From positions 90,001 to 122,000 of the forward strand of contig NZ_OZ034981.1 in the NCBI RefSeq assembly GCF_964030875.1: a DNA stretch of 32,000 nt. Direction: 5' to 3'. Numbering within the stretch: position 1 is the first letter of the stretch; the number at the start of each line of letters is the position of its first letter. Shown piece after piece: positions 5,635 through 32,000 of the stretch. The notes beneath the pieces are model-generated. The model did not search any database and was not told the DNA's origin. It saw only the letters and a list, made by a program, of their open reading frames with translations. A program made the position numbers and the translations under genes. Source of the DNA: Candidatus Saccharimonadota bacterium. Its GTDB lineage: Bacteria > Bacteroidota > Bacteroidia > Flavobacteriales > Blattabacteriaceae.

Positions 5635-5771
5635 TGGAACACGTAATTAACTTAACCGTATAAGCAGTTTACGCAAGAAAGGGTTTCGTTTTCTACTCCA
5701 CGTTCTGAGATCTTTTCCAGGACGAAATTATAACGTCCTTTGCGAACTACATAGATATTATATTCTGCGGG

Positions 5772-5903
5772 AGCGGTTGCGGTAGCGGTTGCGGTAGCGG
5801 TTGCGGTAGCGGTTGCGGTAGCGGTTGCGGTAGCGGTTGCGGTAGCGGTTGCGGTAGCGGTTGCGGTAGCGGTTGCGGTAGCGGTTGCGGTAGCGGTTGC
5901 GGT
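5772..5903. repeat. perfect tandem array, 12 bp x 11 (gcggttgcggta, itself two GCGGTW hexamers)
   Basis: Read directly. It drives the artefactual (RNRY)n ORF 5758..5994. Confidence 0.97.
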
Positions 5904-6117
5904 AATCCAGGTTCAGTATGATGCTAAACATAGCGTTGGCCAATACGCTTCCCTCTTTCCCGTCAGCATTTATGAGTTCATTCGCACCAATCATAATGGG
6001 GTTTTACGTGCATCTATCACCTGTACCTTGATATTGTCACGAACCACTACTATTTTTTTATAATGAATTCTCGAGAATAAGTAATCTTTTCTTTAATAAG
6101 CAATCTTTAATAAGCAC

Positions 6118-8470: not shown

Positions 8471-9091
8471 ATGCATATTTTAGAGAAATATTTTACAGAA
8501 CTTACTGCTCATCAGTATGAGCAGTTTTTTGAAATGAAAACTATTTACGAATATTGGAATGCACGAATGAATTTGATTTCTAGAAAAACAATAGATAATT
8601 TTTATCAACAGCATGTGCTTCATTCCCTTGTAATAGCTAAAATCTCTCCATTTTTACCTGGAGCTAGGATCATGGATGCAGGGACAGGTGGAGGATTTCC
8701 AGGAATTCCTTTGGCAGTTTTATTTCCTAATAGCCAATTTTTATTAGTAGATTCTATTGTAAAAAAAATTCGAACAGTTACAGAAATTTATAAAGAATTA
8801 AATCTTCATAATGTATACACTGAATGTACACGTATAGAACAGTGGAAAGAGAATTTTGATTTTATCATTTCTCGTTCTGTTACAAGATTAAGTCAATTAG
8901 TTCATTGGACTTCAGGAAAATTTTTTAAAACTTCACATCATGCATTAAAAAATGGTCTTTTGTGCTTGAAAGGTGGAGATATAAGTAGTGATATTAAAAA
9001 TTTGCCCCAAGCTAGAGAATATGCTATAAGCAATTATTTTGATGAGTTCTTCTTCAAAAAGAAAAAAATCATTCACCTACCTAGTAGGTGA
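8471..9091 (+). CDS. rsmG: 16S rRNA (guanine527-N7)-methyltransferase
   Basis: WNARMNLIS...HVLHSL...IMDAGTGGGFPGIPLAVLFP...LLVDSIVKKI...SRSVTRL are GidB/RsmG motifs. Confidence 0.92.
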   Translation: MHILEKYFTELTAHQYEQFFEMKTIYEYWNARMNLISRKTIDNFYQQHVLHSLVIAKISPFLPGARIMDAGTGGGFPGIPLAVLFPNSQFLLVDSIVKKIRTVTEIYKELNLHNVYTECTRIEQWKENFDFIISRSVTRLSQLVHWTSGKFFKTSHHALKNGLLCLKGGDISSDIKNLPQAREYAISNYFDEFFFKKKKIIHLPSR

Positions 9092-11084: not shown

Positions 11085-11650
11085 ATGTTAAGCTTCTTTT
11101 TTTTGAAGAAGGAAAGATTTTACTGGTAGATCAACCTAATTTTAGGTGGTGAAAAGAATTCGTTGGAAGATCTGCAGATTTGTCAATATTAAAAAAATCA
11201 AAGTCGTACATGCTGGAACTCTCGATCCAAAAGCTACTGGACTATTGATAGGATGTACAGGAAAAGCTACTAAGGAAACAGAAAAAGACTATAAAATTTA
11301 CAGTGGGACCCTAAAACTTGGGGCTACTACTCCTTGTTACGATTATGAAATGTAAGAAGATAAAATATTCCCCATTGATCATATACAAATTTATGAAACC
11401 GCTAAAAAATAATGCAACAACCACCAATTTTTTCAGCCCTTCAACAAGAAGGAAAACGTCTTTATAAAATGGCAAGAAAAGGAATTAAGATCGAAACAAC
11501 GTTAAGAGAAGTATAAGTAGAAATTTGAGGGTCCATTGTGGAAAAGGTCCGTATATTAGTTCACAATTTTGTAGATTCACCGCAGGGCCTAACAAATCAA
11601 TGGGTATACAATAAACGACGTAGATACAACCTATTGGCCTTAAATTGACC
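11085..11650 (+). pseudogene. truB: tRNA pseudouridine(55) synthase pseudogene (frameshifts and stops)
   Basis: Fragments lie in different frames. FEEGKILLVDQPNFRW* follows a T8 run at 11097-11104. Then VHAGTLDPKATGLLIGCTGKATKETEKDYKIYSGTLKLGATTPCYDYEM* (catalytic GTLDP box), QPPIFSALQQEGKRLYKMARKGIKIETTLREV*, and CGKGPYISS. Confidence 0.87.
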
Positions 11651-13063: not shown

Positions 13064-13350
13064 GATATATACGAAATTCTTGAATCGCTTCTACAGTAAC
13101 CTCATAACGCACTTGCTTTATTTGTTAGGGGAACGGTAATCAGAAGTATACTCTCGTAAATAAACGACTTTTAAAATTATAACACTGGCAGCTGAAGATT
13201 TTCAGGCCTATAACAGACTGTGTTGAAGTAAACATTTCGTTTTATAAAGAAAGTTTTTTAGCTCCTTAAAACGGATTAGTTTACCTACTGGGCTATAAAA
13301 TTATTTCGCTCATAAGTTCTAGCGGATATTTTTTTGTAGTCCCTGAACGA

Positions 13351-13380
13351 AGCATATCTAAGCATATCTAAGCATATCTA
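13351..13380. repeat. perfect tandem array, 10 bp x 3 (agcatatcta)
   Basis: Read directly. Confidence 0.95.
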
Positions 13381-13545
13381 CAACCTTAATTAAACCTAGA
13401 TCCGGTTGGCCACATCCACAGTACAGTCATCACTATAGAGAATGTCGTCAGAATCGTACACGTTGTAAACTATTCAGATATTTATTGGCTACTCGCTGTA
13501 TATCTTCGCACCGAATAGAACGGTAATGATTATCAGTAGATTGCG

Positions 13546-13649
13546 CAATTACAGCGAGCAATTACAGCGAGCAATTACAGCGAGCAATTACAGCGAGCAA
13601 TTACAGCGAGCAATTACAGCGAGCAATTACAGCGAGCAATTACAGCGAC
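13546..13649. repeat. perfect tandem array, 13 bp x 8 (caattacagcgag)
   Basis: Read directly. It drives the artefactual ORF 13526..13708 (39-bp translational period AITASNYSEQLQR). Confidence 0.97.
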
Positions 13650-13927
13650 ATATATACCCAGCAATGGTCAGCGTAGCATTGTATAATCATTCTCGTCAGC
13701 TGTATTGAGATCCAAACTACTTAACGTTGAGTTTATTATCAACTCTGGCATGTAACAGACGCAACAAGTATGATATTCTCCACGACCAATAAACCTCTAC
13801 AACCCGTATTCTTATACCCTACGTGGTCCAGTATACGGAACTAAAGGGTGATAACATGTAATCCGTTATCAATGGTGGATCGTATATACTTTGAGAGTTG
13901 GTGTATTCTTAGAGAATTTTCCTTTAG

Positions 13928-14395
13928 ATGAAATATTCAAAAAAGAAAATCCGTTTATTCCTTAGCATTGGGATATTTTTTTCTATCGTGTTTCAACCGA
14001 TTAGAGCACAAACGTACATCAACCGATTAGAGCACAAACGTACATCAACCGATTAGAGCACAAACGTACATCAACCGATTAGAGCACAAACGTACATCAA
14101 CGTAAATGTTGAAAAAGGCGCTAGTCTTTTTAAGACTAATTGTACTTCTTGTCATTCTACCGATATGACTAAAAAACTTATAGGCCCAGCGCTGTATGGC
14201 GTCACTAACAAGAGAAATAGTGAATGGATCAAGAATAATAAAGATTTAATAAAAAGCGGAGATAAAGACGCTATTTCGATCTATAAAGAATATGGGAAGA
14301 TAGACATGAACCCTTTTCCTCAGCTTTATGACACAGATATAATCCTCCTTAAAAAACTTCTGAAATACAACCATAAGATCCTAGTGAAACCTTGA
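13928..14395 (+). pseudogene. class I c-type cytochrome (signal peptide plus one CxxCH domain) interrupted by a stop codon created by a 26-bp x 4 array
   Basis: The ATG at 13928 gives MKYSKKKIRLFLSIGIFFSIVFQPIRAQTY. The array then reads INRLEHKRTSTD-TAG (14054-14056). The same frame resumes as ...INVNVEKGASLFKTNCTSCHSTDMTKKLIGPALYGVTNKRNSEWIKNNKDLIKSGDKDAISIYKEYGKIDMNPFP. The tracked ORF 14165..14395 starts after the heme motif. Confidence 0.82.
13994..14102. repeat. perfect tandem array, 26 bp x 4 plus a 5-nt partial copy (caaccgattagagcacaaacgtacat)
   Basis: Read directly. Units are 13994-14019, 14020-14045, 14046-14071 and 14072-14097. Confidence 0.97.
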
Positions 14396-14475
14396 TTAGG
14401 CTAGTTATACTAGGGTTTTGATTTTACTGATTCTGAGAATATACACGCTTGTTCGCATAATAGATGAAGAGTACC

Positions 14476-15045
14476 ATGAAAAAAATCCCGTCGTATTGGG
14501 GATATTCGTTAGATGGGATTATTGACGTGAATAAGGTATATCAGCCCAATCAAACGATTTATTTCTCTCATTCAAATAGATTGGCATTCTAGCGCAAAAT
14601 ATGGAAAAGTATCTGGAATTCCTTCTGCGAATATATGTCTGAATTGCCATGTTAGTATCACGGAATATAACGTCGATTAGATTGAAAATGGTAAATCTAA
14701 AATTTTTTAGACCAAAGAAATACAAAAAATTTATAAAGCTATAGGCCTAACCTATTCTAATAAAACTCACCCGATAAAATGGATAATATGCCTGATCATT
14801 CTCAGCATGTGGTAGCTGGAGAGGAAACAATCTAAGAATGTAGATGTGGTATGTAAAGTCTGTCATGGAGAAGTTCAAGATAAGGTAAAAATGGTTAATG
14901 TATGGGGTTAATTGTCATAGGACTACAGAAGTAAATATGGACAATAAATTACATGAAAAGTTGAAAAAACAACATAATGGTAAAAACCCGGTAAAAGTTA
15001 CAGTAGATTCTGTAGGAGGAATAGAATGTGGTAAATGTCATTAAC
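14476..15045 (+). pseudogene. actA: alternative complex III-like multiheme cytochrome c subunit (ActA-like) pseudogene
   Basis: Fragments: QPNQTIYFSHSN..., IDWHSSAKYGKVSGIPSANICLNCH, CKVCHGEVQDK, GVNCHRTTEVNMDNKLHEKLKKQHNGKNPVKVTVDSVGGIECGKCH*. They lie in several frames with stops, and one expected CxxCH appears deleted (IDWHSS). Confidence 0.75.
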
Positions 15046-15062
15046 TTCATAAATAACTCGAA

Positions 15063-17250
15063 ATGGGAAACACTACACGGAGAGAATTTCTAAAATGGAT
15101 GGTATTTGGAATAGCTTCTGCTACATTAGCTAGTTGCACTGTTATCCTATCTATTCCATATTACACCAGGAATACCAGTATACTATGCTTCAACTATGTT
15201 TGATGGCTTCGATGGCAAAATACTGAATCTCTTCATAACGTATCGTCTCGTGTACAGGCTTCTTTACTTCTATTAGATGATAACGAACGGTTAAAAGGAC
15301 CTTCAATTAAAAGACAGTCTGGATCATGGAATATGTTATTTCACAACTAAAAAAAATTACTTTCTTTTACCAGTCCATCTACGAAAAAGTATATCCAACA
15401 GCACGTTGGATTACTTCTGATGCATATTCTTCAGAAATACTAGGTATCCCACACTCCGATAATTAATTGTTTCCTTTGATGCAGATTTTTTAGGTAGTCC
15501 AGAGAGCTTAGCAAAAAAAAACCCGGTGCTAATAATACAACTGGAAAGCCTAACAGGTGCTCAAGTACATCATCTGTTATATATAAGACTATGCAAGGTG
15601 ATTCTAACCATTATCTAGCACAAAAAATTAAAGGTTCGAAAGCAGTAGTTTTTGCTGACGGCAGTAAAGAGGCTTAGCTCTTTTAATCAATAAAAAAATT
15701 AGTAGCCATGCTCTAAACCTTTTCTTACTTGCGAAAGAAAGTAATGATTTATTATAGATCTTGAAAAAGGAGACATTTTAATAAATAATGCTAATCCTTT
15801 ATATACAAAAAAATTAAAAACTTACCGGATAATTTTCTCCCAAAGAGGATGAAACTTACGATATGATGAAGGTATGGGCACCTACGAACCATTGGTTGTA
15901 AAGCTGGGTGAACCTATTACAGGGATCTCATGCAGCCTGTTATACAACCATTACAAGATTCTTTACTAATATGGAGATGGAGTTGGAGTAATCTAAGATA
16001 TAAGCAAGAAAAATACATATCATAGCAGTAATCTGACCTATTCTGAAAAAATATTTGACCAGTGTTTCATCATTTAATGAAGCCTTTTTTCGTGGCTGCG
16101 TCTAAAACTAAAAAAAAGAAGGTTTTGAACTATATACTACAACGGCCTTAGGAGATGGAACTCAGTCCAATAATCCTTGGAGCTTCCTGATCCCATTACC
16201 CGTACTACTTGGTACACACTTTGGAAAAAACTGGTGATTCGTAATTGGCTCAGAGGAAATGGAGCAATGGATGGAGATTGTGTTTATCTAACAATGGGAA
16301 ATATTACATTTAAAAATGTTCCTGTTTATATACAACCTGTACAAGCGTTGGGTTCCATAGGATACTAAAGGAAAAGTATCCTGTCAATCAGTAGGAATAA
16401 ATGCTTACTATCTGGATGAGAATTTTAAGATTCTACAAAAAGGAATTAAATCTTCAATCAATTTTCTTGTGCGCAGTTACAACACACTATGGTCGGAAGA
16501 AATTCCATTGCTAGAGAAACCAAAAAAAAAAGAAAGAAGAGAAAATAAAAATTTATAAGGGAGATATTCCATTATATAAAATCACACTTTGGAAAGATAG
16601 ATCTCAAGGTCATCATTTCCATCTTTCTATAGATTTATGCATAGGATGTGGATCATTGCATGTCATGCAGAAAACAATGTACCAGTGGTAGGTAAAGTCT
16701 CGTGATATGCATTGGTTACGTATAGATCGTTATTATTCTACTGAAGAAAGTTTCGTCAGTCTGGCCAAAAAGGGACTTTCACAAAAAAATATGTTTTCGT
16801 AGCCAGAAATGTCCAATATAATCCTAAGGTTATTTTTCAACCTGTTATGTGTCAGCATTGTAACAATGCACCTTGCGAAACAGTTTGTACGGGAGCAGCG
16901 ACTTAACATGGACAAAACATGATGGCCTACAACCGGGGCGTTGGCACGCGTTATTGCGCTAACAATTGTCCTTACAAAGTTCGTAGGTTCAACTATGCTG
17001 AAAATTATATAGGGAGATATGCTGAAAATTATATAGGGAGATATGCTGAAAATTATATAGGGAGATATGCTGAAAATTATATAGGGAGAATGGCGCTTAA
17101 TCCAGATGTAGTAGTACGAAGTAGAGGAGTAATGTTCTCTTTGTATTCATCTTACACAGGCTCCCAGAGCCAAAAATATAAAGGATGGTGAATTCCATAC
17201 ATTGTGCACTAAAGCCTGTCCTAAGGAGCTTTAAGTTTTGGTGGTTGGGC
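15063..17250 (+). pseudogene. actB: alternative complex III-like molybdopterin-family / 4Fe-4S subunit (ActB-like) pseudogene
   Basis: Tat-like N-terminus MGNTTRREFLKWMVFGIASATLASC. Ferredoxin boxes IDLCIGCGS..., [77 protein letters not shown]. There are many stops and frameshifts, and the locus is shorter than an intact homologue. Confidence 0.85.
16995..17090. repeat. perfect tandem array, 24 bp x 4 (atgctgaaaattatatagggagat), in frame inside the actB pseudogene
   Basis: Read directly. It encodes YAENYIGR x4 in ORF 16919..17191. Confidence 0.97.
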
Positions 17251-17505
17251 ATTGATAGGTTGCAATGTTTTGATACCACAAGTACTCTGGTTCAGAGCTG
17301 GACGAAGAAGTTTTTTCTGGTCGGATGTAATATAGGAATGTGGTTTGATATGAACCTCAGCCACGATTATCTTCCTTCTACCTGGACAGGATTTCTCCCT
17401 TCTTTTGTAGATATTGGAATTTTTATCGGAACTAATGGTTTTATATTTATTATCCGCACGAATATTTCCTGGAATTTCACTAGTAGCGATATTTCTAAAT
17501 AATCA
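17251..17505 (+). pseudogene. actC: C-terminal remnant of the NrfD-like membrane subunit (ActC-like), fused by deletion to the actB 3' end
   Basis: VLIPQVLWFRAGRR..., VGCNIGMWFD, MNLSHDYLPSTWTGFLPSFVDIGIFIGTNGFIFII resemble only the last roughly 100 aa of NrfD/ActC proteins. The N-terminal bulk is absent. Confidence 0.6.
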
Positions 17506-17720
17506 AGGTTATCTTCCTTTTTTTAATAATTTACACGGACACGATTTAGCTAAATATATTTTTGCTACTAGTCTTCTATGGACTTATTTGTTTACTCTAT
17601 TGGTATGGTAATATACCTGAAGAAGTAACATATTTTCTGCATCGTTCAAATCAATATCATTTTATTCACTTTATCATGCTAATTACCAATTTTTGGACTT
17701 ATCAGTAGTAGATATAAAAA
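17506..17720 (+). pseudogene. further ACIII membrane-subunit remnant (ActF-like?)
   Basis: LICLLYWYGNIPEEVTYFLHRSNQYHFIHFIMLITNF contains the (L)IWY(G/A)N(I/L)PEE-type motif that I associate with the distal ACIII membrane subunit. The assignment is tentative. Confidence 0.4.
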
Positions 17721-17862
17721 AATAATCGTGGATGTATTCTCCTGATAGGACATTGATTATGCCAGGTAGCGGAGACTGCTTTGGTATGTATTAAATCGGT
17801 AGTCTACTTTTTGTAGGTTGTATACCCACAGGGTAATTTACTATTCTAGTAGTAAAGTGTAT

Positions 17863-23727: not shown

Positions 23728-23824
23728 CTCTTTCTTGTGTTTTTTGTTAGGAGGAGAACTTTTCGAATACGCAAAGCTATAACGCAGCCTTAAACGGTTG
23801 TAATAACTATAATTCTAGCGCATT

Positions 23825-24520
23825 CTAAATTTTTCTCTCCATAAAAATGTCTTTAACATACACTAGAAATCCCACAGATTCTCTGACGTCTATGAAAGTG
23901 CTACGTACATTATGGGACGAATCTTCACCTATGGCTACAGGACGATAAACTATATTGTGCATGCCTAAAATAACGCTTTGAGGAGTATTAATAATGGGAG
24001 TCGAAAGCATAGAACCAAATACTCCTCCATTAGTAATGGTAAAAGTCCCACCACTCATTTCATCTACGGAAATTTTTCCGTATCGTACAAGTGATGCTAA
24101 ACGTTTTATCTCTTGTTCTATTCCTCTGAAGGAAAGTATCTCTGCATTTCTTAAACCTTTAGGTCCAGATAAAAATCATAATGTATTTTCTCTTCTCCAT
24201 CAATCATATAAATTTAGAGCTAATCCTACACCATGTCGTTCTTTATATCAAACTTAATATCTCGCTCATGTCTATTTCGTTAAAAGTAGTAAGCATAGCA
24301 GTTTCGTTTTTTACGTTTACTTTACGTTCAGAAATTTTCTTTATAAGTGCAGAAAGACGTTCTCTTTGAAATGAACGAGGAGCACCAGTAGTTGCTACCC
24401 CTATCGACTGAATAGCTTTAAGAGCATCTTTTTTGGTAATCCGACCTTCTTTACCATAACCTAAAATTTGTGAATAAGAAATCTTTTTCTATGCTAAAAT
24501 ATTCCTTGCTGGAGAAGGTA
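23825..24520 (-). pseudogene. sucB: 2-oxoglutarate dehydrogenase E2 (dihydrolipoyl succinyltransferase) pseudogene; no lipoyl domain found
   Basis: Minus-strand fragments: IPSPARNILA*KKISYSQILGYGKEGRITKKDALKAI (E3/E1-binding domain containing a stop), ERLSALIKKISERKVNVKNETAMLTTFNEIDMSEIL, MSGGTFTITNGGVFGSMLSTPIINTPQSVILGMHNIVYRPV. The DHRxxDG catalytic box is replaced by STFIDVRES. Confidence 0.87.
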
Positions 24521-24801
24521 TTTTTTTAAGTTCACTTGCGATTTGGACTAAAATCTTGTTCAAGAACTTGTATGGATCTGATGTTTTCTTTTTGTAAAGA
24601 TCTCTAGCGTTAATATGATTCGCAATAGCCTTATAAAGTGAAGGTTGTGTAAACCTGGGGTCATCTCCTATACACCACAATAAAAACATCTCTTTGATAG
24701 AAAATCTACAGCAAAATGTATAGCGTGAATCACGTATTCTACATCATCAGCATTGACGTGTAATACTGGGGAACGATATCAGTGCAATAGATACTAGAAC
24801 G

Positions 24802-24907
24802 ACCATCTATATAATCGGTGGTAAATACCATCTATATAATCGGTGGTAAATACCATCTATATAATCGGTGGTAAATACCATCTATATAATCGGTGGTAAA
24901 TACCATT
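24802..24907. repeat. perfect tandem array, 25 bp x 4 plus a 6-nt partial copy (accatctatataatcggtggtaaat), inside sucA
   Basis: Read directly. The unit is the coding sequence for ..FTTDYIDG.. Confidence 0.97.
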
Positions 24908-24983
24908 TGATTATTGACTACTATATGTATCGTTCCTCCTGTTTTATAACCTTCTAGTTGAGACATTTCATAAATAAGACCTT

Positions 24984-25079
24984 GTCCAGAAATAGCAGCA
25001 TCTCCATGTCCAGAAATAGCAGCATCTCCATGTCCAGAAATAGCAGCATCTCCATGTCCAGAAATAGCAGCATCTCCAT
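24984..25079. repeat. perfect tandem array, 24 bp x 4 (gtccagaaatagcagcatctccat), inside sucA
   Basis: Read directly. On the coding strand it repeats HGDAAISG, the GDAA(F)xGQG region of E1o. Confidence 0.97.
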
Positions 25080-25540
25080 GTCTAAGAATGGGTAACAGAT
25101 GGTTAGAATTTTTCTTATAGTAATGATCTATCTTAAACCTTCTACCACAGTATCTACAGTTTCAAGATGCGAAGGTGCAAGACTTATCCCATGACGGTTA
25201 TTTCGTTTTATCGTAGCTACGAAATGATATTTGACGTCTACAGAAAAAACTTATATTCTTTTCCATAGAATTCGCAATATACAGTCTTAAGATGACCCGC
25301 CGTTATATTAGCAAGTGTACAAGGTTCCTTTCCGACAAGTTTTCCAGCTTCAAAAACCGTTTCAAGATCTTCTATACCAAGTACAAATTGTTCAATATCT
25401 AAATTAGGAGAATATTCACGCCTACTCCTAATTGGATTAGTTTTCGTAAAAATATGCCCACGACTACGATAGGCTTGTATAAAATTTCATCCCTGGAATT
25501 CCTTCATCATTTTTTTAGAATCCTTGTTATCATTTCTATT

Positions 25541-25656
25541 GTAGGTAGGCAAAAACCTTGAAAAAAAGTGTAGGTAGGCAAAAACCTTGAAAAAAAGTGT
25601 AGGTAGGCAAAAACCTTGAAAAAAAGTGTAGGTAGGCAAAAACCTTGAAAAAAAGC
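25541..25656. repeat. tandem array, 29 bp x 4 (gtaggtaggcaaaaaccttgaaaaaaagt), inside the sucA N-terminal region
   Basis: Read directly. All three frames of the unit are open on the coding strand, and FFQGFCLPT recurs after 87 bp in ORF 25507..25758. Confidence 0.97.
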
Positions 25657-25785
25657 ACGCCAACTTGGCTCAATCTGGTCTGGAGTATGAAGATATCTAT
25701 GATAGAGCTCTTCAATGAGTTTTGGATGAACGGTATTCAGAAAAGAATAACGATCCATGATAAATAAGTATAAAATGTAACATTT

Positions 25786-28520: not shown

Positions 28521-29498
28521 TTACAATATGCTGATACCTAAGGCTTTTCTAACACGTTGTAATGTTATCGTAGCTATTTGTGAAGCACGTTCAGCTCCCA
28601 TAGAAAGAATTTTATTTAAAAGGACTTTTTTTTGTATAAATTCATTGAATTTTTCTCGTTCGTGTTTAAACCGATGTAATAAAAGTTCATAAAGAGCTTG
28701 TTTAGCATTCCTATAACCATAACCTCCAGTTATATAATTTTTTTCCATTTCAATAATTTGGTATTCAGAAGCAAAAAATTTGTAAAAAGTATAAATTAAA
28801 TCTGTTTCTGGATTTTTAGACTCCTCTAAGGAAAAATTATTGGTTCGAATATTCATGATTTGCTGGTATAGTTCTTTTTCTTTAGCAAAAAGATTTATAA
28901 TATTTCCTTTAGATTTGCTCATTTTTTTTCCGTCGATACCTGGAATATACATAAGATTTTTATTAATCATAGGTTCTGGTACAACAAAGACTTCTCCTAT
29001 TTTACTATTAAAACGCTTGGCTATGTCACGCGTAATCTCCAGATGTTGGAGTTGATCTTTACCCACAAGTATTTTTTCAGCATCGTAGAGCAATATATCC
29101 GCTGCCATTAGCATAGGATAGGTAAATAAGCCAGTGTTAATCTCTTTAATCTCATTTTTTTTTTCCTTAAATGAATGTGCTAATTTCAGTCTCTGATAAG
29201 GGTAAAAACAACTTAAATACCAAGATAACTCAGTAGTCTGAGGTACATCGGATTGACGATAACAAATCGCCCGATCTGCATCCAGTCCGCAAGCAAGCCA
29301 AGTAGCCAAAACTTGATAGGTATATTCTTTTAATAACTCAGCATTTTTAACAACAGTTAACGAATGTAAATCTGCAATAAATAAAAAGGAAGTATAATCA
29401 TAGCTATTTGCCAATTGAATAGCTGGAAAAATAACACTCAATAGATTGCCTAAATGAGGAATCCCAGTGCTTTGGATACCCGTTAATATTCTGGACAT
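28521..29498 (-). CDS. trpS: tryptophan--tRNA ligase
   Basis: ILTGIQSTGIPHLGNLL (HIGH-type box), ...GKDQLQHLEITRDIAKRFN..., KMSKS box (GKKMSKSKGN). Confidence 0.95.
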   Translation of the reverse strand: MSRILTGIQSTGIPHLGNLLSVIFPAIQLANSYDYTSFLFIADLHSLTVVKNAELLKEYTYQVLATWLACGLDADRAICYRQSDVPQTTELSWYLSCFYPYQRLKLAHSFKEKKNEIKEINTGLFTYPMLMAADILLYDAEKILVGKDQLQHLEITRDIAKRFNSKIGEVFVVPEPMINKNLMYIPGIDGKKMSKSKGNIINLFAKEKELYQQIMNIRTNNFSLEESKNPETDLIYTFYKFFASEYQIIEMEKNYITGGYGYRNAKQALYELLLHRFKHEREKFNEFIQKKVLLNKILSMGAERASQIATITLQRVRKALGISIL

Positions 29499-29626
29499 TT
29501 TTAAGATTTTAACGCTTCTGCACTTACCACAATTTCTTTAGTAATAGCATACTGACGTTCTTTATTATTAACTAACTTTTATTTCTGTGGCTTTATGCAT
29601 AGCCATAAGACGTGATTAAATAAAGA

Positions 29627-29663
29627 GCTTAGGCTCCATAAAGTAGCTTAGCTCCATAAAGTA
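29627..29663. repeat. imperfect tandem duplication, 19/18 bp (gcttag(g)ctccataaagta)
   Basis: Read directly. The copies differ by a 1-nt indel. Confidence 0.85.
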
Positions 29664-29692
29664 AAAGTAATTAACTTTTTCATCATTACTAG

Positions 29693-29713
29693 ACTTTATA
29701 CTTTATACTTTAT
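29693..29713. repeat. tandem array, 7 bp x 3 (actttat)
   Basis: Read directly. Confidence 0.85.
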
Positions 29714-30108
29714 AGAGATAGGTAAATGAACCTTTAAGAATTTTTCTAGAAATAGATCGCTATAGTCTCCATAACTAGGAAATTTTATTTGTGCAGATAC
29801 TACGACAGAAATACCTTCATTAATTGCTGGTCGGCCACAGTAATAGAGATAATATTAGTTGGAATAGATCCGTCTCCCTAATAGGTAGAGCTGAACCTAC
29901 CAATACTTAACGTTCATATTACGGGCTACTTCAGCATCTTGGATTATTTGAGCAGAACGTTACGAGAAAAGACATAAAGACATCTACGGGATAAGCTTCT
30001 ATAAATTTCACGTCTGGGGCTTGCCTAGTAGCGAGGAGCGAGGCGTTAGCTGCTACTACTACCGTGCACCATACATTACTTATGGGTGATCAGAACATTC
30101 AATAGTAT

Positions 30109-30148
30109 CTATGGCGCTCTATGGCGCTCTATGGCGCTCTATGGCGCT
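30109..30148. repeat. perfect tandem array, 10 bp x 4 (ctatggcgct)
   Basis: Read directly. Confidence 0.97.
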
Positions 30149-30201
30149 GGTAATACCATTACCCCAGCATCCCTTCTACTACCTGTAGTAGATGTCCGCT
30201 A

Positions 30202-30297
30202 CGTTGCACTTTGCGTTGCACTTTGCGTTGCACTTTGCGTTGCACTTTGCGTTGCACTTTGCGTTGCACTTTGCGTTGCACTTTGCGTTGCACTTTG
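30202..30297. repeat. perfect tandem array, 12 bp x 8 (cgttgcactttg)
   Basis: Read directly. It drives the artefactual (VALC)8 and (SATQ)8 ORFs 30086..30385 and 30199..30435. Confidence 0.97.
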
Positions 30298-30579
30298 TAC
30301 CACACCAACATGGTCAATCCCTTTAAGACCAGTGACCAGGATGAAATTCACCGTATCTAGTCCTGAGCTACTCCAAATTATGTAATATAATTCTTTATGG
30401 CTGCTGTCATAGATTTGACCATTCTTTATGCTCAATCAACCCTAGTAGTATCTTTCCATTACTTCCTTTATTTTTCAATGGTATAGCCGTGATGATAGTG
30501 GCTTCGACCCACTTTAAAATTGGAAGACCGATTTTTTTAAATTAATAGAAAGCATTTCATCAGATGCCTTATCAAGCTC

Positions 30580-30960
30580 TGTGTTATTACTACCCCGAGA
30601 AATCATTTATTATTTTTCTTGGCATGCATTGTATTTGAGTTCTTCTTTAAGAAGTTTTTCAGCAATGTTAATAGACAAATCAACTATATATGAGACTTTT
30701 CGCCTGTGCTTGTTCTTCACGGGTTTTATCACTCATTATACGAGCTTATTAATATCTCGTTCAATACGACTTTCTTTAATCCAATTATCTTTTAAAAGAC
30801 GAATTTCTTCACGGACTTTTTGAGCAGCTTCTAGAGAATTATGCAAATGAGTATCACGTTTGAGTATCACGTTGTTCAATCATATTTAATATGGGTGTTT
30901 CCACGCAAATTTTGTCAGAATGAAAAACAAAAGTAAAAAGAGAACACTTTGCCAAAAAAT
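30580..30960 (-). pseudogene. atpF: ATP synthase Fo subunit b pseudogene
   Basis: The minus-strand translation FWQSVLFLLLFFILTKFAWKHPY*..LNN..RDTHLHNSLEAAQKVREEIRLLKDNWIKESRIERDINKL** has the FW-x-hydrophobic-KFAWKP membrane anchor followed by a charged helix. It is interrupted by stops and a 13-bp duplication. Confidence 0.7.
30848..30873. repeat. 13-bp tandem duplication (tgagtatcacgtt x2) inside atpF
   Basis: Read directly. Confidence 0.9.
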
Positions 30961-31175
30961 AAAACCTCGGGAAGGCGTTACTAAATCCACTCGGTAAACC
31001 CTATATAGCTAAAAGGGCAGTGACTATACCGAAAAGTGCAGTAGCTAGGTTGTCTGTAGATCGCCTACAAAACAGATAGCCCTAGCGTCCATACCAATAA
31101 ATAAGGAAGAGAGCGCTGTAAATCTGAATGCTTCAGACACCAGCACTTCGAGTAATAGCACTTCGAGTAATGACG
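30961..31175 (-). pseudogene. atpE: ATP synthase Fo subunit c remnant
   Basis: Minus-strand fragments lie in two frames: AIYRQPS (compare the conserved ARQPE loop) and LATALFGIVTALLAI* (helix-2 end). A 15-bp duplication sits at the N-terminal side. Confidence 0.55.
31142..31171. repeat. 15-bp tandem duplication (agcacttcgagtaat x2)
   Basis: Read directly. Confidence 0.92.
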
Positions 31176-31179
31176 GAAA

Positions 31180-31920
31180 TCAGGCAAACCCTGCAGCAAA
31201 TATACTTTTAAAAATGAATCTGACGCAAATAAAGCTCAATATAATAAGATGACCCGCCGGAGCAAATAAACGAATGCAAAGTGTCATTGGTCTTATAAAG
31301 ATTCCTACAAGTTCTATTGGGATGAGTAAAAAACGAACAAATATCGTAGGCAGATGGAAAATCTGTTTACAATAAGATCTTTTGGAGGTTATAATCAACG
31401 ATAAAACTAAGGTGGTATTAATATTCCCAGTTACATTCGGAATTCGTAGCCGATGGCAGCATCCCAATAAGATTGGTTATAAAAAAAATACAACTTATAC
31501 ATCGCCTATGTTTTGAATAGCTAATTCATCTCTTAGGAACAAAATTAGTGGTTATAACAATTTAGCCTGTAAAGAAATAGGACAATAATCTTTGTCAGAA
31601 TTTGCCATGTTTAAAAACATCCCACAAAGAATAAAAACAGAACATAAAGTAGCCACAACATTTTTCGTAATGGAGAGATTCAACGGTTGCTGATTTAGGT
31701 CCTGAGGTGGTCAAGGACCCATAAGCGTCGGTTTTATTGCACAAGACGATAATATTTTCCTTAATCTTCTACAATCTTTCTTCCATATTTAAACCGAAAA
31801 AACATGCCAGCCTTTATACCACAAAATTATAGGAATACTTAGACTTTTCTCTCCACTACCCCAAAAGTGCCATTCAGATGAATCTCGTATGTGTTCAAGA
31901 ATAACTTCAGCAGGATTCAT
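31180..31920 (-). pseudogene. atpB: ATP synthase Fo subunit a pseudogene
   Basis: N-terminus from the ATG at 31920: MNPAEVILEHIRDSSEWHFWGSGEKSLSIPIILWYKGWHVFSV*. ORF 31180..31467 reads ...NVTGNINTTLVLSLI...IELVGIFIRPMTLCIRLFAPAGHLIILSF, where the conserved RLFGN-x-x-AGH box is altered. Stops and deletions lie between the two pieces. Confidence 0.8.
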
Positions 31921-32000
31921 AATTCTTTCTCTATAAGAAACTACAAAACTATTCAGCACAAAAAATCATGAGTTATTGGACAAGTAGAACCATCCTCATT

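Follow-up and report, generated by a model that had tools for sequence, protein, structure and literature searches.

A probable ATP synthase pseudo-operon with unstable tandem arrays in the genome of Candidatus Walczuchella monophlebidarum strain ICPU

Location and source of the locus

The subject of this analysis is the segment 29501-31920, minus strand, of a 32,000-nucleotide stretch of DNA (henceforth the window), in which pieces of genes for subunits of the F1Fo ATP synthase (atpB, atpE, atpF, atpA and atpG) follow one another between a cysS remnant and an intact trpS. The window is the reverse complement of a part of CP170564.1 (GCA_053502465.1; 288,943 bp) and belongs to the 289-kb genome of Candidatus Walczuchella monophlebidarum strain ICPU, an obligate flavobacterial symbiont that lives in the bacteriome of the cottony cushion scale, Icerya purchasi. 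Among public contigs, CP170564.1 alone encodes the window's TrpS and GyrB. About 42 kb of CP170564.1 was read (segments L001 and L089) and compared with the orthologous loci of strains DRPI (from Drosicha; L002), CRMU (Crypticerya; L003) and LLAX (Llaveia; L004); the comparison comprises these four strains, those of Icerya seychellarum, Crypticerya genistae and Drosicha corpulenta being outside it.

As a reference we used the intact operon of Crocinitomix, a member of Flavobacteriales (L005, 5,515 bp), which encodes, in this order, atpB (359 amino acids, aa), atpE (73 aa), atpF (164 aa), atpH (177 aa), an extra 146-aa open reading frame (ORF), atpA (524 aa) and atpG (292 aa). The genes atpD and atpC are not adjacent to atpBEFHAG in Crocinitomix and do not form a part of that operon in Flavobacteriales. 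Short pieces were tested by comparing the score of the best collinear tblastn chain with those obtained for 200 shuffles of the same DNA, and the Pfam scans of the remnant were run on translations in which stop codons had been replaced by X. All coordinates refer to the window unless a segment is named, and all atp remnants lie on its minus strand.

Anatomy of the atp remnant

The atpB pseudogene (subunit a of Fo; 31090-31920) consists of an N-terminal piece (31920-31792) and a core (31683-31090). The core aligns with residues 132-352 of the reference AtpB (tblastn E-value 2e-27, 36% identity) and is interrupted by 4 in-frame stops, and the N-terminal piece, from 31920 onward, aligns with residues 40-70 (E-value 7e-4) and begins with the peptide MNPAEVILEHIRDSSEWHFWG (31920-31858). 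The Pfam family ATP-synt_A is identified in this remnant with an E-value of 9e-11, above the gathering score. The peptide IRLFAPAGH (31275-31249) corresponds to the conserved RLFANITAGH box of subunit a, from which a 6-bp deletion specific to ICPU has removed the N-I codons.

The atpE remnant (c subunit; 31004-31064) consists of two pieces in different frames, AIYRQPS at 31064-31044 and ALFGIVTALLAI* at 31039-31004. The tblastn search reports a single short piece, ALFGIVTALL, and the match is weak when taken alone (E-value 0.28); the AtpE chain, however, scores 29.2 bits against 4.8+/-5.9 in the shuffles, none of the 200 reaching the observed value. The DRPI segment orthologous to the ICPU piece matches AtpE residues 27-54 with an E-value of 2.7e-4. 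A trace of atpE is thus still recognisable, whereas this gene was reported as absent from LLAX in the 2014 description of that genome.

The atpF pseudogene (b subunit; 30610-30990) was identified both by tblastn, with residues 1-77 of AtpF aligned to 30990-30754 (E-value 7e-15, 2 stops), and by Pfam (ATP-synt_B, E-value 0.006); a database search with it returns AtpF proteins only. Recognisable peptides are FWQSVLFLLLFFILTKFAWKHPY* at 30957-30889 and the C-terminal DLSINIAEKLLKEEL at 30681-30637. Its lesions include a 2-bp insertion common to ICPU and CRMU and a frame-shifting 13-bp duplication private to ICPU.

Between atpF and atpA lies an unassignable spacer (30340-30609), which occupies the place expected for atpH and for the first 420 bp of atpA. 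No match to AtpH was found in any of the four strains (49 of the 200 shuffles reach the score observed in the window, and there is no match to the Pfam family OSCP), nor any match to AtpA residues 1-140. The atpA pseudogene (alpha subunit of F1; 29783-30339) is made up of seven collinear pieces in three frames, which span residues 148-388 (residues 148-156 at position 30339, 228-242 at 30065, 291-298 at 29999, 307-322 at 29959, 339-346 at 29894, 355-363 at 29865 and 379-388 at 29833). The chain scores 157.8 bits, compared with 109+/-13.5 in the shuffles (0/200 reach it), and the frameshift-corrected alpha peptide matches in the PDB only the alpha chains of ATP synthases (E-value 0.0013). Among the pieces are the peptides SIPTNIISIT (29868-29839), RPAINEGISV (29833-29804) and SAQIK (29797-29783). 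The orthologous DRPI segment gives an AtpA match with an E-value of 3e-17.

A second unassignable spacer (29655-29782) marks the site where the 3' end of atpA and the 5' end of atpG have been deleted: in the four-way alignment about 700 bp of atpA/atpG is kept in DRPI and LLAX and missing from ICPU and CRMU. What is left of atpG (gamma subunit of F1; 29501-29654) is its C-terminal part, with residues 245-255 and 265-290 of AtpG aligned to 29615-29510 (E-value 0.005; 3 of the 200 shuffles reach the chain score) and with positions 240-276 of the 285 in the gamma family ATP-synt of Pfam recognised at an E-value of 0.0016. It ends with ERQYAITKEIVVSAEALKS* (29560-29504), whose TAA at 29503-29501 stands 2 bases before the ATG of trpS at 29498, and this end of atpG is conserved in all four strains. 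The downstream neighbour trpS (28521-29498, minus strand) is an intact 325-aa ORF with the domain PF00579, and its product is 57-60% identical to TrpS of free-living flavobacteria.

Considered as a whole, the remnant measures 2,420 bp against the 5,515 bp of the Crocinitomix operon, and since about 190 bp of it consists of extra repeat copies, approximately 60% of the ancestral operon has been lost. The losses include atpH as well as about 70% of each of atpA and atpE and about 80% of atpG. The B, E, F, A and G pieces keep the order of the reference on a single strand, but none of the three minus-strand frames is open: they contain 44, 59 and 57 stops per 806 codons, with all three stop codons used. 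Within 29499-32000 the ORFs of both strands are at most 99 aa long, and those of the minus strand at most 95 aa. Two plus-strand ORFs of 99 aa and 80 aa were considered as genes and rejected, as they are repeat-driven or have no Pfam match. The Walker A motif of the alpha subunit (G....GK[ST]) occurs in no frame of the remnant, no Rfam family is found in 29300-32000 even at a permissive threshold, and a scan of the remnant for promoter and terminator motifs yields no excess, with fewer sites than in shuffles. Of the features of a functional F1Fo (open frames, the alpha Walker A motif, the helix with the c-ring carboxylate, a full-length a subunit), none is present here, which suggests that the complex could not be assembled from this locus. 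Taken together, the sequence features indicate that 29501-31920 is very probably a non-functional, neutrally decaying atpB-atpE-atpF-atpH-atpA-atpG pseudo-operon.

This agrees for the most part with a sequence-only reading of the same DNA, in which the entire atpB-E-F-H-A-G operon was proposed to have decayed, with more than half of it deleted and with seven tandem arrays in the remainder. The peptides quoted in that reading were all found on the minus strand at the positions given there; the estimate of the deleted portion, the number of arrays and the distance of 2 bp between the gamma C-terminus and trpS hold as well. The claim of a complete set of remnants is sustained for B, E, F, A and G; for atpH it is not, given the absence of any trace. 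The tblastn search with flavobacterial Atp proteins that the reading had proposed as a check returned AtpB and AtpF with the low E-values given above and AtpA, AtpE and AtpG with scores that exceed the shuffles, and the sister-genome comparison that it had likewise proposed revealed orthologous remnants in DRPI, CRMU and LLAX.

Tandem arrays

The Tandem Repeats Finder (TRF), run with a minimum score of 30, reports exactly seven arrays within 29501-31920, five of which score at least 50, the threshold used below for density counts. Two are perfect arrays within the atpA remnant, one of 12 bp x 8 (30202-30297) and one of 10 bp x 4.1 (30108-30148), and both are present as a single copy in CRMU, DRPI and LLAX. 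The same is true of the frame-shifting 13-bp tandem duplication of atpF (30848-30873), which is private to ICPU. A 15-bp tandem duplication in the 3' region of atpB (31142-31171) is common to ICPU and CRMU only and absent from DRPI, and an imperfect array of 18 bp x 2.4 in the atpG remnant (29620-29663) includes an extra 18-bp copy that is absent from CRMU. The remaining two have lower scores: an array of 7 bp x 3.1 (29693-29714; score 44) and a duplication of 8 bp x 2 in the atpA remnant (29968-29983; score 32), which is weak and may be due to chance. Arrays private to CRMU and to LLAX occur at other positions.

In the window as a whole, all 22 arrays with a score of at least 50 lie outside the intact genes, even though intact coding sequence makes up 52% of the window (P-value 1e-7), and they account for 9.5% of its non-coding DNA. 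Most of them are perfect (100%); their units measure 9-29 bp and are repeated up to 11.6 times. The arrays are a mutational signature of the dead DNA. Expressed per 10 kb, their number is 6.9 for the window, 4.1 for CRMU, 0.8 for LLAX, 0 for DRPI and 0.29 for free-living Flavobacteriales (a baseline from 80 loci, 792 kb in total, found via TrpS); in the sampled loci this corresponds to a single array in LLAX and none in DRPI.

The window and CP170564.1 differ by no substitution over 32 kb, and the only differences between them are three single-unit copy changes, all in perfect arrays: 8 versus 7 copies at 30202-30297, 11.6 versus 10.6 at 5766-5904 and 3.1 versus 4.1 at 13350-13380. Two Logan contigs, 99% identical to DRPI, have three copies of a 7-bp unit of which DRPI has two. 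The arrays may have a far higher mutation rate than single bases, or they may be the one feature on which assemblers disagree; under both explanations they are marked as unstable. In one Logan contig, SRR32776415_751923, the atpB remnant is joined to a dnaE-like ORF (L087, ~1095-1105); we considered this as a rearrangement and rejected it, since the junction, GATCGATC, is a GATC junction and the contig is probably a proximity-ligation chimera, which we used only for the 7-bp repeat count.

These observations would fit a process in which, in the Walczuchella lineage of Icerya and to a lesser degree in that of Crypticerya, dead DNA spawns perfect 7-29 bp minisatellites that mutate much faster than substitutions accumulate; we see about even chances that this is the case. 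If it were true genome-wide, the decay of tiny symbiont genomes would not be purely deletional, and the arrays would represent an undescribed lineage-specific mutational signature as well as a strain-typing marker for the symbiont of a global citrus pest. As to the possible genetic cause, every strain lacks dnaB, dnaG and mutL according to the literature, and three strains, left unspecified there, retain mutS. The array-rich ICPU and CRMU have ruvC as an intact ORF of 176 aa, and in the array-poor DRPI (L002 2151-2468) and LLAX (L004 2031-2204) it is a remnant. No clean correlation was found between the loss of a repair gene (mutS and ruvC were checked) and array density.

Comparison of strains and alternative explanations

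DRPI, CRMU and LLAX possess collinear atp remnants between the same neighbours as ICPU, each with different lesions. DRPI has the best atpA remnant and LLAX a 131-aa atpF ORF, and CRMU resembles ICPU; according to the four-way alignment the differences consist of dozens of small lineage-specific deletions and tandem duplications. The most parsimonious reading is an operon already broken in the common ancestor of the four lineages: inactivation would predate their split because all four lack both atpH and codons 1-140 of atpA.

Over the 2,323 bp of the remnant aligned between ICPU and CRMU, we counted 65 substitutions and 25 indel events. Its divergence is 2.5%, compared with 1.6-1.8% at the third codon positions and 0-0.6% at the first and second positions of trpS and proS. 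For ICPU and DRPI the corresponding values are ~15% for the remnant and ~7.5% for the third codon positions of the two genes. The remnant thus diverges at or above the third-position rate of its neighbours, as expected of unconstrained DNA.

In the sequence of events that we propose, selection on the operon would have been relaxed with the host bacteriocyte supplying energy, and after its inactivation the operon would have been whittled down by many small deletions. The Icerya/Crypticerya branch would also have gained short tandem duplications, which may have expanded by replication slippage; such expansion fits a genome without dnaB, dnaG and mutL, as known from the literature.

Some points weigh against the interpretation of the locus as a neutrally decaying pseudo-operon in a cell devoid of ATP synthase. 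That ICPU has no second atp locus, no atpD/atpC, no V-type ATPase and no nucleotide transporter is presumed from the literature, which for atpD/atpC means the report of LLAX as lacking atpC and atpD (PMC3971599). The divergence of the distant pair is inflated by alignment uncertainty in the gapped regions. Finally, conservation is higher at the two ends of the remnant (the ~70 bp that precede trpS and the initial ~100 bp of atpB) than in its middle; these ends may be kept as regulatory sequence of trpS or of the upstream region, and not every base need be neutral.

The conserved ends lead to a related possibility, namely that a part of the remnant has been retained to serve the flanking genes, with the 3' end of atpG acting, for instance, as a promoter or leader of trpS. 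In all four strains the final ~70 bp before the trpS ATG, including the atpG stop codon, is conserved, and it is the interior of the remnant that is riddled with deletions. Nevertheless, a consensus promoter scan finds nothing there and reports fewer sites than in shuffles, and conservation near the start of an essential gene is to be expected from the ribosome-binding context alone; hence we regard such a service as unlikely, although it is the most credible of the alternatives. Far less probable is that the fragments are still expressed, with slippage during transcription or programmed frameshifting rescuing them, or that some of them, e.g. the 95-aa AtpB fragment, are functional. The NCBI annotation does contain a 72-aa ATP-synt_A coding sequence at this locus, and rescue by slippage in poly(A/T) tracts has been noted for carB, trpC and mnmE (Choi et al., PMC12188211). 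This mechanism would have to cope with 44-59 stops of all three kinds per frame and with large deletions that took the core of the c subunit, atpH, the alpha Walker A motif and most of gamma. Moreover, the AtpB fragment has the deletion private to ICPU in the conserved RLFANITAGH, the retained fragment differs from strain to strain, and a rescued product is difficult to reconcile with a remnant that evolves at or above the third-codon-position rate.

The least credible alternative is that the stops and frameshifts are errors of sequencing or assembly and that the operon is really intact. The copy differences in three arrays between the window and CP170564.1 do indicate that lengths are not perfectly reproducible between assemblies. 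Those differences are of single units, though, against more than 3 kb of the operon missing outright, and the same remnant appears in four independently sequenced genomes, including the 2014 assembly. With an ICPU coverage of 1,523x (PMC12188211) and the complete lack of substitutions between the two ICPU records over 32 kb, this explanation is already refuted in practice and has a practically negligible probability.

Relation to known symbiont genomes

The relatives Karelsulcia and Blattabacterium keep ATP synthase. The loss of the atp operon and the decay of energy genes in Walczuchella are already known, having been published in 2014 and 2025. For LLAX, Rosas-Perez et al. (2014, PMC3971599) reported atpA, atpB and atpG as pseudogenes, only atpF as seemingly conserved, and atpC, atpD, atpE and atpH as absent. 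In a study of seven Walczuchella genomes including ICPU, which are completely syntenic, Choi et al. (2025, PMC12188211) found most of the 38 genes of energy production (COG category C) lost or pseudogenised in all seven and concluded that the host mitochondria are the source of ATP. The main text of that study contains no locus-level anatomy and no mention of ATP synthase or tandem repeats, and tandem repeats are not mentioned in either of the two Walczuchella papers (PMC3971599, PMC12188211). What is added here is the base-level anatomy of the ICPU locus, with the faint trace of atpE, the absent atpH and the adjacent cysS pseudogene, and the evidence from tandem arrays.

The atp locus of LLAX is like that of ICPU in gene order and orthologous to it by alignment. 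LLAX differs in its 131-aa atpF ORF, its larger atpA and atpG remnants and its intact cysS and sucA, whereas in ICPU atpF is frameshifted, the ~700 bp of atpA/atpG noted above is gone in addition, and cysS and sucAB are dead.

Other symbionts known to have lost ATP synthase are Uzinura, some Buchnera and Portiera, and Tremblaya (PMC3971599 Table 3; PMC3787670). They have reached the same end state, without F1Fo and with the host or a partner as the presumed source of energy, but in them the genes are gone without a trace; in Walczuchella the loss is midway and the debris is still recognisable. The locus shows the loss of ATP synthase in progress and speaks for a bacterium that is powered by the bacteriocyte of its host.

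The closest parallel to the arrays is Portiera of Bemisia tabaci, an ancient symbiont lacking replication and repair genes, in which the proliferation of microsatellites was linked to the loss of these genes and indels occur in a repeat context (Sloan and Moran 2013, PMC3673631). Portiera and Walczuchella are alike in that short tandem repeats are concentrated in non-coding DNA. They differ in the repeat units (a 7-bp spike in Portiera of B. tabaci, 7-29 bp units in Walczuchella), in genome stability (rearrangements as against full synteny) and in the genes lost (dnaQ as against dnaB, dnaG and mutL), and the pattern of ruvC relative to array density in Walczuchella is opposite to that of Portiera. 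Rearrangements of the Portiera type were not encountered, the four Walczuchella loci being collinear. The instability of the arrays bears on how tiny genomes erode after the loss of replication and repair genes.

Other features of the window

Besides the atp remnant, two large gene-free gaps of the window contain debris of energy genes: fragments of cytochrome c and of a 4Fe-4S dicluster protein (ActB-like) at 13064-17862 on the plus strand, and fragments of sucA and sucB at 23728-25785 on the minus strand; sucA is a full 924-aa gene in LLAX. In the first gap, a perfect array of 26 bp x 4.2 (13993-14101) puts a stop in the cytochrome c gene, which is recognisable by its CTSCH haem motif (Pfam E-value 2.4e-8), and an array of 24 bp x 4 (16994-17089) follows the 4Fe-4S fragment. 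In the sucA/sucB debris three perfect arrays of 24-29 bp x 4 are found between 24802 and 25655, one of which repeats the codons for HGDAAISG four times.

The genes found intact in the window are tsaD, dapB, rbfA, rsmH, an aminotransferase gene, rsmG, gyrB, rpsP, genes for a DUF3127 protein and a SufT-like protein, sufE, groEL/ES, secG, a sigma-54 activator gene, miaB, alaS and trpS. The sequence-only reading had asserted that every energy-conserving function encoded in the window is inactivated next to intact translation, chaperone and Fe-S genes, and had taken this to mean that the organism would depend on substrate-level phosphorylation or on ATP or energy from the host or a co-symbiont. The first assertion is borne out, as cytochrome c, the 4Fe-4S protein and sucA/sucB are present only as fragments. 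The second is true of rpsP, sufE, groEL/ES, alaS, trpS and others, and fails for cysS, a pseudogene situated just upstream of the operon. A host supply of ATP is also the published conclusion for this organism (PMC12188211).

The 3' end of the pseudogene of cysS (cysteinyl-tRNA synthetase; 31953-32000, minus strand), identified by tblastn with the intact CysS of DRPI, lies immediately upstream of atpB and continues past the window, in which its translation begins NEDGSTCPITHDFLC*. Collinear fragments of CysS residues 19-483 are packed into ~725 bp in ICPU (L001 6806-7543) and CRMU, among them SLIDNEDGSTC with 100% identity, whereas LLAX and DRPI have an intact ORF of 484-488 aa. The ICPU remnant contains a perfect array of 15 bp x 8.7 (L001 7154-7284).

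Decay at the locus is a mosaic among the strains, with ruvC dead in DRPI and LLAX, sucA full in LLAX, and alaS, intact in the window, reduced in DRPI to its first ~332 codons (L002 9715-10894). Alanyl-tRNA synthetase was counted among the missing synthetases of LLAX (PMC3971599); in the LLAX record there is an ORF of 875 aa in which all three Pfam domains of AlaRS are present (L004 9428-12055). Another translation-related pseudogene of ICPU is truB, which follows gyrB in two short fragments of 68 and 34 aa (TruB_N) at L089 12025-12392, i.e. approximately 11150-11520 of the window. The rsmG ORF (8471-9091) has a 13-bp x 2 duplication (8475-8500) at its extreme 5' end, and the gene may actually start downstream of the duplication.

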